Part shown: positions 1,560 to 5,503 of the stretch, piece by piece
Numbering within the stretch: position 1 is the first letter of the stretch
Layout: each line of letters starts with the position of its first letter
NCBI RefSeq assembly: GCF_030013595.1
Contig: NZ_CP122773.1
Strand: one strand, 5' to 3'
DNA from: Escherichia coli
GTDB lineage: Bacteria > Pseudomonadota > Gammaproteobacteria > Enterobacterales > Enterobacteriaceae
DNA length: 5,880 nucleotides
Translations under genes and position numbers: made by a program
Notes under the pieces: model-generated
Told to the model about the DNA's origin: nothing
What the model saw: only the letters and a program-made list of their open reading frames with translations
Database searches by the model: none

Positions 1560-1730
1560 TGAAAAATGGCAGGTTCATTGGATTAAGGCGGACTAATGTG
1601 CTCTGTGCCATCTGGTTGCATAGGTATTCATACGGTTAAAATTTATCAGGCGCGATCGCGGCAGTTTTTCGGGTGGTTTGTTGCTATTTTTACCTGTCTG
1701 CTGCCGTGATCGCGCTGAACGCGTTTTAGC
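1560..1730. promoter_or_regulatory. cer-like accessory sequences (ArgR/PepA binding region) of the multimer-resolution site
   Basis: ARG-box-like TGCATAGGTATTCATA at 1617-1632, about 100 bp from the Xer core as in ColE1 cer; the stretch matches my recollection of the ColE1 cer accessory sequence almost base for base; contains inverted repeat 1649-1664 / 1701-1715. Confidence 0.65.
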
Positions 1731-1759
1731 GGTACGTACAAACTGTTGTTATGTTAAAT
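1731..1759 (+). other. XerC/XerD core recombination site (cer-like, variant central region)
   Basis: GGTACGTACAA (1731-1741; 10/11 to cer XerC arm GGTGCGTACAA), 7-bp central ACTGTTG (1742-1748), TTATGTTAAAT (1749-1759; identical to the dif XerD arm, 10/11 to cer TTATGGTAAAT). Confidence 0.7.
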
Positions 1760-1781
1760 ACTGATGGGCTTTCCTGATTGA

Positions 1782-2696
1782 TTATCCGAAGATCAATCCC
1801 CAAACACTTTTAGCTACAGAAACAATGGCTTTCTTGGCGACTTTAGCCACTGACGCTATTGGTTTAGGTAGTACGGTGTCTATTATATCATCAATAGCTC
1901 TATCTACGGTGTCTGCGAACCCGTCCTTTGCCGTTTCTACAATTTCTTTTGTTTTTATTTCGTCTTTTACTTGATGCACCACTCCGCTCTGTGCTTCCTT
2001 TGGGAGCGATCTTACTATTGCCTCCACTAACCTTGAAATGTTATAACCTTCATTCGCAGATACAGATATAACGGGATGTTTGGTAAAACCGAATCGTTCT
2101 ATTAAGTATTCTTCCTTTTTTCTAATATTTATTTGTTGTGAGGGTGATGGTTGGTGTTTTTCTTCATCCCATTCGCGGAATGGCTCAATCTTGTCGACTT
2201 GGTTTAAAACAAACAACACTTTTTCATCACCACCAACTGGTTTTAAAACATTTTTATAAAAGTGCTCATCAGCTGAAAATGCTCGATCATCACCTTTAAC
2301 AACCCAAAGCACCAGATCTAATTCTGGGAGAAGATTTTTATACAACTCTTCATATTCTATATCTTTAGCTTCATTTTCACCTACACCTGGTATATCTATT
2401 ATTTTAATTGTTCTATCACCAAATGAAATTATTAATTCCTGAACCTTTCTCGTGCATGCTTCTACATCACTCACTGCACATACATTACCTTTAAAGATAG
2501 AATTACATAGGCTGGATTTACCAGCGCCGGTTTTACCCATAATCCCTATTACTGGTTCGTAATTAATAACATTTCTAATTTTGTTATAGACAGACTTGCG
2601 AATCTCTTTAGGTAGAACATCCACAGCTTCTTTGATTAATTTTATACCTTGCGTATTGTTTTCCATAGTTACTATTTTCCTCATTTTGTTGTTCAT
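1782..2696 (-). CDS. P-loop GTPase, YfjP/YeeP/YkfA-like (50S ribosome-binding GTPase / MMR_HSR1-type domain)
   Basis: Walker A GKTGAGKS (nt 2514-2537, minus), G3 DIPGVGE, G4-like NQVDK; stretch VIGIMGKTGAGKSSLCN...DxPGVGE...LDLVLW resembles E. coli prophage GTPases YfjP/YkfA as I recall them. Start is ambiguous: ATG at 2696 lies 5 nt after the upstream gene stop; ATG at 2666 has an AGGAA 9 nt upstream; the track's ATG at 2753 gives a K/R-rich extension overlapping the upstream gene and has no SD. Confidence 0.8.
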   Translation of the reverse strand: MNNKMRKIVTMENNTQGIKLIKEAVDVLPKEIRKSVYNKIRNVINYEPVIGIMGKTGAGKSSLCNSIFKGNVCAVSDVEACTRKVQELIISFGDRTIKIIDIPGVGENEAKDIEYEELYKNLLPELDLVLWVVKGDDRAFSADEHFYKNVLKPVGGDEKVLFVLNQVDKIEPFREWDEEKHQPSPSQQINIRKKEEYLIERFGFTKHPVISVSANEGYNISRLVEAIVRSLPKEAQSGVVHQVKDEIKTKEIVETAKDGFADTVDRAIDDIIDTVLPKPIASVAKVAKKAIVSVAKSVWGLIFG

Positions 2697-2701
2697 ATGA
2701 A

Positions 2702-3136
2702 TTAACGGAAGCTTGTTTTTCTTTCTTCTTTTTCTTCCCCGCATACAGAACATTTGTAATGGCGATAGGTATCAGAACTCCCACTAAGATACCAATTGTG
2801 TCTTTTACCATGAACTCGCTCTGTAAAACATCTCACGCATCTTTCTTTCACATTGCAATAATCATCGACTGCAATTTCAACAAATCTTTCATGCCTTTCG
2901 CCTTCTTGTTCAGCGCCACAGTCGATACACTTTTTTACAGTTGTGCACTTGAAATCGTATTTATAATTTTCCTCTCCGTATTTATGCTGTTCTTTTTGTA
3001 TAGTGCGATTGCAGTCAGGGCATAGTTTAGAATATTTACAAGTCTCACCATCAATAAGCTTATAGTTTCCTCCGTGTATACCTACCCCACACTTAGCCTT
3101 GATTGCTGCATTTTTTATGCTATCCCAAAAGCCCAT
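2702..3136 (-). CDS. Cysteine-rich putative zinc-binding protein (three tandem C-x5-C-x2-C...H modules plus terminal CxxC)
   Basis: 144-aa ORF; SD GGGAG 8 nt upstream of ATG at 3136; 12 Cys; C33-x5-C39-x2-C42, C64-x5-C70-x2-C73, C94-x5-C100-x2-C103 with periodicity ~30 aa, each followed by His, and C129-x2-C132; AT-rich like neighbours. Confidence 0.75.
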   Translation of the reverse strand: MGFWDSIKNAAIKAKCGVGIHGGNYKLIDGETCKYSKLCPDCNRTIQKEQHKYGEENYKYDFKCTTVKKCIDCGAEQEGERHERFVEIAVDDYCNVKERCVRCFTERVHGKRHNWYLSGSSDTYRHYKCSVCGEEKEERKTSFR

Positions 3137-3181
3137 GGAAAAATCTCCCTACGATTAGTTGATATAAGTTGAACAATTCAT

Positions 3182-3225
3182 CGACATGATTATACACGTA
3201 TAGTGTGTGGATATATAAAAATGAG
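3182..3225 (-). promoter_or_regulatory. Candidate sigma70 promoter for the zinc-ribbon/GTPase operon
   Basis: Perfect TATAAT on the minus strand (complement of 3189-3194) about 46 nt upstream of the 3136 start codon; -35 is weak (TATATA-like); AT-rich intergenic region. Confidence 0.3.
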
Positions 3226-3363
3226 TATGGATTTATGCTCTGTATAATGTTGTTGTTATATTAAATATAGAGCTGAAAAAGTGGGGGCACTGGATAAACT
3301 TCGTGTTTTTCCCGCAAAGATAGTATTGGAAAGTCATTGTCTAATTCATCCAAGATAAATATT

Positions 3364-4176
3364 TTACGAATTTGTGAGTTTGCTTGAGATTTTTATATAT
3401 TCAGCCTTTATTAACTCATTGCCATATTTTTTCTCGAGCCTTTTAACAATGAAATGACCTCGAGCCATATCTTGATAATAGTCGGTAAACATTGTGTTTA
3501 ATGTGGCTCCAGTTAGTGCTCCAATAACGGGAACGACTTGAGCTGCCATTTTTTCCGTAATAACTATACCAAATCTTGTTGCAACTTTTTCTATTAACGA
3601 AGCTAACCATTTTCCTGTTTGTACTGAAGATGCGTTTTTGACAGCAATGTTAGAAATTTCTTTGGATAAATCTTGTACGATCTCGGCAGTCAAACTTCTT
3701 GTTGCATAGTATGCAGTATTAGCTGCATCATCGTCATCAGATGGTCCTCCCAAGGAAAACACCTCTAAGCAGGCCAGTTTGGTATCAATATTATCTAGCT
3801 CAAAACCTTCACTTCTTGCTATGTCAGCAATTGAACGAAGCATAATTGTCGTTGAAACCGGTAACTCAATTGCTAATGCAGAAAAGCCAAAAGCGCCACC
3901 AATGGCTCCAGATACGGCCGCAAAGAATTTATTTGTCTTAGTTGATGCTATTCGGTTAGGTTCATTGTCTAGACTCCATAAGGCTGCATCAGCAGCTTTG
4001 TGGAGAGATTTTTCTACTAGACTATAAATTTGCTCTTCTGCCCCTTTGGGAAGTTTACTCATTAAGTAATCTATTGGGGTTCCAACTAATTGGGTTAATG
4101 TTTCAGTAATTGTATCTTGTTCTAATAATTCTACGGCCCTTTCTAAAGCCCGCAGATCTCCTTCTTCAAGATGCAT
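3364..4176 (-). CDS. Hypothetical protein, possibly EcsC-family-like
   Basis: 270-aa ORF; AAGGA 8 nt upstream of ATG at 4176; Gly/Ala-rich hydrophobic segments (AAVSGAIGGAFGFSALAIELPV, VVPVIGALTGATLNTMF), acidic patch GGPSDDDD; overall impression matches EcsC-family proteins but this is from memory, not a search. Confidence 0.7.
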   Translation of the reverse strand: MHLEEGDLRALERAVELLEQDTITETLTQLVGTPIDYLMSKLPKGAEEQIYSLVEKSLHKAADAALWSLDNEPNRIASTKTNKFFAAVSGAIGGAFGFSALAIELPVSTTIMLRSIADIARSEGFELDNIDTKLACLEVFSLGGPSDDDDAANTAYYATRSLTAEIVQDLSKEISNIAVKNASSVQTGKWLASLIEKVATRFGIVITEKMAAQVVPVIGALTGATLNTMFTDYYQDMARGHFIVKRLEKKYGNELIKAEYIKISSKLTNS

Positions 4177-4329
4177 ATAATGAATCCTTTATGAATCAAT
4201 CGATAGTCTACTTTTGTAAGTGATTCGTCTTGGGAGCTTACCTTGAGCGAGTTCAGTGATTCAATAGGCGAGATGCCGACATCATTGTTGTCTGTGAAGC
4301 AGGAGTGATGAAAAGATCAAAGGATCCTC

Positions 4330-4358
4330 TTGTGATCCTTTTTTTCTGCGCGTAATCT
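4330..4358 (+). promoter_or_regulatory. RNA II (replication primer) promoter
   Basis: -35 TTGTGA (4330-4335), 17-bp spacer, -10 TAATCT (4353-4358); aligns with the pMB1 P2 region (TTGAGA...GTAATCT). Confidence 0.7.
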
Positions 4359-4367
4359 GCTGCCTGT

Positions 4368-4475
4368 AAACAAAAAAACCACCGCTACCAACGGTGGTTT
4401 GTTTGCCGGATCAAGAGCTACCAACTCTTTTTCCGAAGGTAACTGGCTTGGTGGAGCACAGATACCAAATACTGT
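4368..4475 (-). ncRNA. RNA I antisense copy-number control RNA (108 nt)
   Basis: Reverse complement of 4368-4475 reads ACAGTATTTGGTATCTGTGCTCCACCAAGCCAGTTACC...CCACCGTTGGTAGCGGTGGTTTTTTTGTTT, i.e. the canonical three stem-loop RNA I with terminal hairpin plus U-run; differs from pMB1 in loop-proximal bases. Confidence 0.85.
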
Positions 4476-4483
4476 CCTTCTAG

Positions 4484-4511
4484 TGTAGCCGCAGTTAGGC
4501 CACCACTTCAA
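4484..4511 (-). promoter_or_regulatory. RNA I promoter
   Basis: On the minus strand, -35 TTGAAG (complement of 4506-4511) and -10 CTACAC (complement of 4484-4489), 8 nt upstream of the RNA I 5' end; same arrangement as pMB1. Confidence 0.6.
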
Positions 4512-5149
4512 GAACTCTTAATATCTCAATCCACCTTGTCCAGTTACCAGTGGCTGCTGCCAGTGGCGCTTTGTCGTGTCTTACCGGGTTGGACTCAAGA
4601 CGATAGTTACCGGATAAGGCGCAGCGGTCGGGCTGAACGGGGGGTTCGTGCACACAGCCCAGCTTGGAGCGAACGACCTACACCGAACTGAGATACCAAC
4701 AGCGTGAGCTATGAGAAAGCGCCACGCTTCCCGAAGGGAGAAAGGCGGACAGGTATCCGGTAATCGGCAGGGTCGGAACAGGAGAGCGCACGAGGGAGCC
4801 ACCAGGGGGAAACGCCTGGTATCTTTAAGTCCTGTCGGGTTTCGCCACCTCTGACTTGAGCGTCAATTTTTGTGATGCTCGTCAGGGGGGCGGAGCCTAT
4901 GGAAAAACGCCAGGGGCGCGGCCTTTTTCCTGGTTTTGCCTTTTTGCTCACATGTTCTTTCCGGCCTTATCCCCTGATTCTGTGGGTAACCGCATTACCG
5001 TCTCTGAGTGAGCTGATACCGCTCGCCGCAGCCGAACGACCGAGCGCAGCGAGTCAGTGAGCGAGGAAGCGGAAGAGCGTAGGCATTTGCATTTTCTCCT
5101 TACGCATCTGTGCGGCATTTCACACCGTCCATGGCGCACTTTTCATACA

Positions 5150-5300
5150 ATCCGCACTGATGTCGCATAGTTAAGCCAGTATACACTCCGCTAGCGCTAC
5201 GTGACTGGTTCAGGGCTTCGCCCCGAAACCCCCTGACGCGCCCTGACGGGCTTGTCTGCTCCCGGCATCCGCTCACAGACAAGCTGTGACCGTCTCCGGG
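5150..5300 (-). other. oriT / bom region (ColE1-type), nic site approx. 5175/5176 on the minus strand
   Basis: Minus strand reads ...GTAGCGCTAGCGGAGTGTATACTGGCTTAACTATGCGACA..., near-identical to the pBR322 bom/nic region as recalled; nic position inferred by alignment, not seen directly. Confidence 0.6.
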
Positions 5301-5311
5301 AGCTGCATGTG

Positions 5312-5503
5312 TCAGTGGTTTTCACCGTCATCCCCGAAGCGTGCGAGGCAGCTGCGGTAAAGCTCATCGGCGTGGTCGTGAAGCGATTCACAGATATCTG
5401 CCTGTTCATCCGCGTCCAGTTCGTTGAGCTTCTCCAGCAGCGTTAATGTCTGGCTTCTGATAAAGCGGGCCATGTTAAGGGCGGTTTTTTCCTGTTTTGT
5501 CAC
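5312..5503 (-). CDS. rop: Rop/Rom RNA I-RNA II pairing modulator (63 aa)
   Basis: GTG start at 5503 preceded by GGAGG 5 nt upstream; protein (M)TKQEKTALNMARFIRSQTLTLLEKLNELDADEQADICESLHDHADELYRSCLARFGDDGENH matches pMB1 Rop except the last residue; the 87-aa track ORF is an upstream in-frame extension. Confidence 0.9.
   Translation of the reverse strand: MTKQEKTALNMARFIRSQTLTLLEKLNELDADEQADICESLHDHADELYRSCLARFGDDGENH

Follow-up and report, generated by a model that had tools for sequence, protein, structure and literature searches.

Small multicopy plasmids of the ColE1 type are common carriers of resistance genes, colicin genes and possibly defence genes, and the way in which they take up such cargo is only partly understood. 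All Xer sites of small plasmids have accessory sequences of about 200 base pairs (bp), which adjoin the XerC arm and contain an ArgR or ArcA box; sites of 29-30 bp need these sequences, and only 28-bp sites recombine independently of them, in an FtsK-dependent manner (PMC11724359). It has been proposed that plasmids of the ColE1 type exchange segments at oriT and Xer sites (Tran et al., 2012; Zakharova et al., 2002; as cited in PMC6764390, PMC10454011 and PMC8683028). The stretch of Escherichia coli DNA analyzed here (5,880 bases, hereafter the window) is a complete mobilizable plasmid of this type. In addition to its own cer site it carries a second cer-like core at 3237-3266, inside a cargo of three genes that encode a GTPase, a zinc-ribbon-like protein and an EcsC-family protein. 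This second site is probably a vestigial 30-bp cer core which marks the seam of two cargo blocks and which arose in the ordinary mosaic evolution of ColE1-type plasmids.

Match to cer and chance expectation

The window's own cer site provides the reference. The ArgR box of its accessory sequence, TGCATAGGTATTCA (1617-1630, plus strand), is the sole exact match to TGCATNNNNATKCA in the window and is the box marked in ColE1 cer (supplement of PMC11724359), lying about 100 bp upstream of the XerC arm. The core (1731-1759, plus strand) consists of the XerC arm GGTACGTACAA (1731-1741), which has A instead of G at position 4 and, at 13.7 bits, is close to the median for 130 curated sites; the 7-bp central region ACTGTTG (1742-1748); and a perfect dif-type XerD arm, TTATGTTAAAT (1749-1759, 20.8 bits). 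The sequence-only reading had rightly taken this core as its reference and had pointed to a near copy of its right half within the cargo. On re-reading, the bases and positions of that copy were exact: 3251-3267 (TGTTGTTATATTAAATA) is identical to cer 1744-1760 (TGTTGTTATGTTAAATA) at 16 of 17 positions on the same strand.

Shuffling the whole window gave an expectation of 0.03 matches with at most three mismatches, and no shuffle contained two matches. As a stricter null model we used 6 Mb of Markov sequence of order 1 to order 3, trained on the AT-rich cargo alone and scored on both strands. It yielded no match of 16/17 or better, i.e., fewer than about 4e-4 expected per 2.55-kb cargo, and the expectation was still near 4e-4 when any 17-mer of the 30-bp core was permitted. 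The AT content of the cargo thus does not account for the match, which, with fewer than 4e-4 such matches expected per cargo, is not chance. The XerD arm by itself is less informative: a perfect arm is expected about 0.01 times per cargo, and the mutated arm of the window about 0.2 times, which is not significant alone. The other ColE1-type plasmids that we fetched carry the XerD-arm motif (at most one mismatch) once each, at their own cer.

The resemblance extends into the centre of the site. In a subgroup of cer cores from related plasmids, an 8-bp centre of the pattern TAYTGTYG precedes TTATGTTAAAT; examples are the pACN001-C core GGTGCGTACAA-TATTGTTG-TTATGTTAAAT, the pSM107_2 centre TATTGTCG and the pSCU-111-4 centre TACTGTCG. 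The window's own cer centre falls in this subgroup minus one base, and looks like a relative of TACTGTCG and TATTGTTG that is one nucleotide shorter. When the ancestral allele of the second site, GCTCTGTATAA-TGTTGTTG-TTATGTTAAAT, is compared with the pACN001-C core, 25 of 30 positions are identical, divided into 7/11 in the XerC arm, 7/8 in the centre (to TATTGTTG) and 11/11 in the XerD arm. Otherwise, the centre differs greatly from one curated Xer site to the next. Because seven of eight centre positions match although centres are not conserved, the second site is tied to genuine cer cores beyond the generic consensus. Judged by these matches, the second site is derived from a cer core, stands in direct repeat with cer, and together with it brackets the GTPase and zinc-ribbon genes.

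The cer site of another plasmid, on contig L017 (2890-2925, minus strand), has a flank after its XerD arm, GACGCTGAAAAATG, that shares 9-10 nucleotides (CGCTGAAAAA) with window positions 3267-3285 (ATAGCGCTGAAAAAGTG). This partial agreement of the right flank GCTGAAAAA may be accidental, or else a remnant of a cer flank that both plasmids inherited.

A contrary view is that the similarity is coincidental or functionally unrelated, the site being AT-rich intergenic DNA which contains promoter elements, the divergent TGTATAAT boxes, and which resembles an XerD arm by accident. The region is indeed 30-33% GC, the cargo contains many short chance repeats, and one copy of TGTATAAT overlaps the putative XerC arm while a second lies on the opposite strand at 3189-3196; an XerD-like arm as weak as that of the window (12.8 bits) would also be unsurprising at about 0.2 per cargo. 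However, the low expectation for a 16/17 match stands against this view, as do the perfect arm in sister plasmids, an allele among them that matches cer at 17/17, and the 25/30 agreement with a real cer core, which includes most of the non-conserved centre. Neither does a spurious XerD arm with at most one mismatch occur in the other plasmids of this type that were examined. The upstream regions of zinc-ribbon homologues elsewhere share nothing with the site, and we likewise rejected the motif as a conserved upstream element of the zinc-ribbon gene, as the homologues in Mixta, Yersinia and Leclercia have nothing in common with it above the ribosome-binding site. Statistically, coincidence is already close to refuted, and we regard it as highly improbable.

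Arms, spacer and accessory sequence

The arms were scored with matrices built from 130 curated enterobacterial plasmid Xer sites (supplement of PMC11724359). The XerC-like arm GCTCTGTATAA (3237-3247, plus strand) is weak. At 8-bp spacing it scores -0.5 bits, in the bottom 1% of the curated arms (5th percentile 6.6, median 13.3, minimum -3.4 bits), and a score of at least -0.5 at 6-8 bp spacing has a chance probability of P=0.02. XerC arms of cer-type sites resemble GGTGCG(C/T)(A/G)(C/T)AA and are most conserved in their inner five bases. Here the inner bases are TATAA, and the arm agrees with GGTGCGTACAA at 7/11 positions and at 5/6 of the inner six. The sequence-only reading had seen a sign of an XerC arm in the retained terminal ATAA, but this tetranucleotide is uninformative, being about equally likely in a random flank and in a real site.

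The spacer TGTTGTTG (3248-3255, plus strand) is 8 bp in the window and in most sister plasmids, and its last 5 bp are the same as the last 5 bp of the window's cer centre; in a 5,878-bp lineage and in contig L034 it is reduced to 5 bp. The XerD-like arm TTATATTAAAT (3256-3266, plus strand) is 10/11 identical to the perfect arm. Most sister plasmids have the perfect TTATGTTAAAT here, which agrees with the XerD-arm consensus TTATG(T/G)TAAAT. The window allele, at 12.8 bits, lies below the curated 5th percentile of 15.2. The difference is a G>A change at 3260, position 5 of the arm, where 98% of the 130 curated sites have G and 0/130 have A.

No ArgR box was found within 200 bp upstream of 3237, the only match in the window being the one in cer. 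Nor does anything upstream of the XerC-like arm resemble an accessory sequence; this stretch holds the likely zinc-ribbon promoter and coding sequence. We also considered whether the second site contains a Pcer-like promoter that drives the zinc-ribbon operon, and rejected this because Pcer sits in the accessory sequence, which is absent here, and runs in the direction of RNAII, on the plus strand. A terminator or structured RNA around the second site was rejected as well, as the predicted fold is no better than that of shuffled sequence (z = -1.07) and Rfam gives RNAI only.

The operon itself is likely driven by an extended -10 element, TGTATAAT (3189-3196, minus strand), 53 nucleotides upstream of the ATG at 3136. 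The promoter of the zinc-ribbon and GTPase genes is a sequence-based assignment, and a simple consensus promoter scan missed this element on account of a weak -35. The second TGTATAAT, on the plus strand at 3241-3248, overlaps the XerC-like arm and would yield a transcript antisense to the EcsC 3' end. The two perfect extended -10 elements diverge about 45 bp apart within a 22-nucleotide imperfect inverted repeat (3175-3196 and 3241-3262).

Another Xer-like pair is found at 4170-4199, where GATGCATATAA (9.5 bits as an XerC arm) is followed after 8 bp by TTATGAATCAA with its inner TTATG intact. It lies across the start codon of EcsC, not far from where the cargo ends on the right, and has a counterpart in 3.27-kb plasmids that carry EcsC. 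This pair is probably chance: the XerD-like half scores poorly, and several XerC-like matches of that strength occur elsewhere in the window.

These features bear on a second explanation, in which 3237-3266 is an active secondary Xer site and the GTPase and zinc-ribbon genes form an Xer-mobilized cassette capable of excision and of renewed insertion at cer sites, which would be the enterobacterial equivalent of the dif modules of Acinetobacter or of Xer-exploiting integrative elements. The direct repeat of the two cores, the perfect XerD arm in most sisters and the five shared centre positions beside that arm are in its favour, and the inner TATAA of the XerC-like arm is also found in the experimentally active R27 site AGTACATATAA. 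However, the score of the XerC arm speaks against activity, and so does the missing accessory sequence with its ArgR box, as only 28-bp sites recombined without it in PMC11724359. The two spacers are unequal (7 and 8 bp) and the second drifts to 5 bp in some copies, and the window allele is altered at a nearly invariant position of the XerD arm. Weighed together with the genomic context described below, an active site appears unlikely.

Variation among sister plasmids

The intergenic region was aligned for six sister plasmids, after which about 30 copies from sisters and contigs were examined; most have the perfect XerD arm at the second site. The A at 3260 is private to the window lineage, and occurs also in contigs L008, L021, L022 and L039. 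Among the first 24 sister copies, written as spacer, arm and flank, there are four alleles: TGTTTTTG-TTATGTTAAAT-ATAGC in 13 copies; the window type, TGTTGTTG-TTATATTAAAT-ATAGA, in five; TGTTGTTG-TTATGTTAAAT-ATAGA, which matches cer at 17/17, in four; and TGTTG-TTATGTTAAAT-ATAGC, with a 5-bp spacer, in two. Further copies add the 5-bp-spacer allele in L034, the window type in L039 and the TGTTTTTG allele in five more (L040-L044). The 5-bp spacer TGTTG arises through slippage of (GTT)n.

Eight haplotypes of positions 1600-4400 (2,801 bp) have 18 variable columns, of which two fall in the 31-bp site, where about 0.2 are expected, and one lies 4 bp beyond it. The cer core, on the other hand, was identical in 19/19 copies compared. 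Given four alleles and two of 18 variable columns in the second site against 19 invariant copies of cer, the second site drifts while cer is held constant, as a relic that is seemingly not kept by selection.

Polymorphism is clustered at 3252, 3260, 3271 and 3275, together with a 3-bp indel at 3249-3254, in plasmids that are otherwise at least 99.3% identical. This clustering could result from relaxed constraint, microsatellite instability or repeated interaction with cer.

The same variation bears on a third explanation, that the relic is kept as a binding site for XerD (or XerCD) and acts as a regulatory operator or roadblock between EcsC and the zinc-ribbon operon, and not in recombination. 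XerCD repression of Pcer within cer has been described (PMC4393325, PMC2831885). The XerD arm is intact in most lineages, and the site overlaps the extended -10 element of the plus strand, with the likely operon promoter about 45 bp away. Nevertheless, the drift of the site, with four alleles, an indel in the spacer and G>A in the arm of the window, argues against constraint, and a regulatory role is very unlikely.

Boundaries of the cargo blocks and genomic context

Homology to ColE1 stops at 1741, the end of the cer XerC arm (blastn), and the AT-rich cargo starts at about 1761, right after the XerD arm. In PLSDB, the exact cer core occurs only in the eight plasmids of this family and hence only with this cargo; relatives carry other cargos, which start at the cer core too, with a particular core for each cargo. 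Both observations, a cargo that begins exactly at the core and a centre confined to that cargo, would suit an active site, as in the second explanation.

ColE1-type plasmids of 3.27-3.28 kb carry EcsC (about 91% identity) without the GTPase or zinc-ribbon gene, and share 3370-5503 with the window at 88-92% identity. In these plasmids (L001, 1476-1658), a different small CxxC open reading frame of about 60 amino acids lies between cer and EcsC, in place of the GTPase and the 144-amino-acid gene. Between the motif and the edge of this homology, a 102-bp segment (3268-3369) is found only in the present plasmid family. The EcsC 3' end (3364-3369) coincides exactly with the homology breakpoint against the 3.27-kb plasmids.

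The sequence-only reading had proposed that EcsC is a separate acquisition next to an excisable cassette. The first part is supported by the occurrence of EcsC without the other two genes on the 3.27-kb plasmids, but the edge of homology is at 3370 and not at 3267. As for the cassette, the bracketing of the GTPase and zinc-ribbon genes by directly repeated Xer-type cores stands, whereas excisability is not supported: the XerC arm is poor, no accessory sequence accompanies it, the length of the spacer varies, and no excision product was seen in the data searched. The gene pair was found only in this plasmid family, always together with EcsC.

An active site predicts a deletion junction of GTACAAACTGTTGTTATGTTAAATATAG[AC]GCTG and a circle junction of TGTATAATGTT[GT]TTGTTATGTTAAATACTGATGGG. 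No deletion derivative, empty site or second context was found among 72,556 PLSDB plasmids, 5,426 E. coli genomes and about 30 contigs; the three genes are together in all copies. The predicted deletion junction had no match in JGI metagenomes, which is weak evidence as only one parent contig is present in that collection, and the second-site pattern had no match in GTDB representative genomes. In the data searched there was also no free circular form of the GTPase/zinc-ribbon segment and no integration at other Xer sites. Elsewhere, homologues of the zinc-ribbon gene (60-65% identity) stand alone in the chromosomes of Mixta, Yersinia and Leclercia. Their flanks are unrelated and hold no adjacent GTPase or Xer site, which also tells against a mobile pair. 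Candidate second contexts did not hold up: contig L039 is the same plasmid with assembly frameshifts, and L035-L038 are chromosomal or island settings without an adjacent GTPase.

Hybrid contigs join this plasmid to a second ColE1-type backbone in four cases: L008 (CP100018.1, 12.9 kb), L017, L020 and L023. Their partners carry IS91 copies, AbiEii, a lysozyme-like gene, or an ABC-ATPase with DUF4435. Some of these contigs may be real cointegrates, and others assembly chimeras. They were not accepted as proof that the second site is used, as the breakpoints are in the backbone, from the origin through rom to oriT, and this location counts against an active site. A transposon-like insertion with a 17-bp target duplication was rejected as well, as no terminal inverted repeats could be read at 1761 and 3250 and a 17-bp duplication is atypical.

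A related possibility is that the GTPase/zinc-ribbon segment (1.5 kb) still is, or was until recently, a cassette without an integrase which entered cer by XerC strand exchange through the weak site GCTCTGTATAA-TGTTGTTG-TTATGTTAAAT. It would now be locked in place because the right-hand site lacks an accessory sequence and has a poor XerC arm. If true, cer sites of enterobacterial ColE1-type plasmids would be capture points for Xer-mobilized cargo, a counterpart of the Acinetobacter dif modules; on present evidence we consider it quite unlikely.

Plasmid layout and cargo genes

The window runs from the mob genes through cer and the AT-rich cargo to the RNAII/RNAI origin. The genes mbeA, mbeB and mbeD occupy 1-1554 and cer about 1600-1760, and the cargo extends from about 1761 to 4310 with 30-42% GC, compared to 50-60% in the backbone. 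RNAII/RNAI and the origin begin at about 4330, RNAI at 4370-4473 being confirmed by Rfam, and rom and the start of mobC follow in the downstream part of the window. The backbone is a mosaic: identity to ColE1 is 100% over positions 1-1500, 94-98% in the cer accessory region and only 84-93% over 4901-5300. The RNAI/RNAII segment at 4401-4700 has 100% identity to the 3.27-kb EcsC plasmids.

All three cargo genes are on the minus strand and were taken from the list of open reading frames. The GTPase gene (1782-2666, 294 amino acids) matches Pfam MMR_HSR1 and is annotated as a GTPase in sister plasmids; its product is about 44% identical to that of E. coli ykfA, and at the nucleotide level the gene is about 70% identical to one for a GTPase beside tRNA-Gly, in a chromosomal island of E. 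coli. The zinc-ribbon-like protein of 144 amino acids (2702-3136) has four CxxC motifs. The EcsC-family gene (3364-4176, 270 amino acids) matches Pfam EcsC, and its protein occurs in the index of 2,085 sample blocks. Because the stop codon of EcsC varies, the product has 270 amino acids in the window, 276 in a variant with a point change in the stop codon (L040-L044), and 279 in the 3.27-kb plasmids (L001).

Among the PADLOC models, EcsC hits that of the candidate defence family PDC-S29 (E = 2.7e-10), and the GTPase weakly hits LeoA and LeoBC in their GTPase domain (E = 1e-11). This small plasmid is very common, and its cargo may have a link to phage defence. PLSDB has eight family members of 5.88-5.89 kb, from E. 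coli, Salmonella and Klebsiella, one of which lies within a 12.9-kb hybrid. Identity among them is 97-100% over the full length and 99.3-100% in the cargo, and complete E. coli genomes add 13 further plasmids.

Discussion

In the explanation that we favour, the relic would have kept its centre and XerD arm nearly intact, while its XerC arm was degraded or replaced; the accessory sequence of about 200 bp is entirely missing. The order cer, GTPase and zinc-ribbon genes, relic core, EcsC and origin would then be the outcome of joining two units, each consisting of cer followed by cargo. This could have happened by XerC-catalyzed strand exchange at the boundary of XerC arm and centre, between the resident cer and a weak partner site on incoming DNA; each product would retain the centre of its own parent, which would give 7 bp at cer and 8 bp at the relic. 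Alternatively, two ColE1-type plasmids may have fused, after which the redundant backbone was deleted up to the XerC arm. The hybrid contigs with a second ColE1-type backbone were counted in favour of such a seam. We infer that the relic arose by one or the other of these routes.

Because the XerC arm is poor, the accessory sequence is missing, the spacer drifts and the window carries the G>A change, the site is likely inactive at present. It is most likely unable to support efficient XerCD recombination, and this would hold most of all for the window allele.

Several observations weigh against a seam formed from a cer core. The XerC-like arm is indistinguishable from chance and may be merely the promoter -10 element TGTATAAT. 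Homology to the EcsC-only plasmid L001 begins at 3370, inside the EcsC 3' end and about 100 bp to the right of the motif, and the EcsC-only plasmids have unrelated DNA between their own cer and EcsC. The predicted ancestor would have the cer core directly followed by ATAGCGCTGAAAAAGTGGGGGCAC, and no such "empty" plasmid, with the core running directly into ATAG(C/A)GCTGAAAAAG and then EcsC, was found among the sequences searched. The sister plasmids are all at least 99% identical in the cargo, so that the comparative sample amounts to one lineage. As to inactivity, degenerate Xer sites do work in other systems, e.g., in integrative elements that exploit Xer.

If the seam is real, a truncated cer core inside the cargo is a physical trace of cargo assembly at Xer sites, which fits the published model of oriT/Xer exchange. 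It also offers a searchable signature for seams of this kind, namely a core that lacks accessory sequence and agrees in its centre with real cer cores. In practical terms, the three genes of the cargo stay together as a stable unit, and the second site should not be annotated as a functional recombination site.

Comparison with known systems

Among the closest known systems are ColE1 cer and its kin, the multimer-resolution sites with ArgR/PepA accessory sequences, with which the second site shares the layout of 11 + 6-8 + 11 bp (in the window and most sister plasmids), the consensus XerD arm (in the sister plasmids) and the subgroup of the centre, and it has the same orientation as the plasmid's own cer. 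Unlike these sites, it has no accessory sequence or ArgR box, its XerC arm is far below their range, and it is not conserved within its family. It also lies within the cargo instead of at the junction of mob genes and cargo.

Other systems resemble the locus in part. In the Acinetobacter pdif (dif) modules, too, genes on small plasmids are bracketed by short XerC/XerD-type sites without accessory sequences. The dif sites alternate in inverted orientation, and the same module is found in many plasmid contexts. The window differs in having direct repeats, one very weak arm and a single context. The CTX phage, the TLC phage and the gonococcal genetic island are likewise integrase-less segments between one good and one degenerate Xer site in direct repeat, where the degenerate site would hinder excision; in the window, no recombinase gene lies between cer (1731-1759) and the second core. 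However, they integrate at chromosomal dif and are seen both free and integrated, whereas for the segment of the window no free form or other site was found.

Two further systems share features with the locus. The pPCP1 family of Yersinia pestis also consists of small ColE1-type plasmids with a second, apparently inactive or truncated Xer element beside the functional one (PMC11724359 supplement, remark #1). What is truncated in pPCP is the accessory sequence, or else the adjacent site is inactive; in the window, a core survives without any accessory sequence. The oriT/Xer model, in what the citing papers give of the work on qnrB19 plasmids (Tran et al., 2012) and on pECL18/pKPN2 (Zakharova et al., 2002), has in common with the window an Xer-bounded variable cargo, a mosaic of backbone and cargo, and hybrid contigs. 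As described there, exchange takes place between complete sites; here, a truncated second core was left inside the cargo. Collectively, the second site is a further example of the known mosaicism of ColE1-type plasmids.

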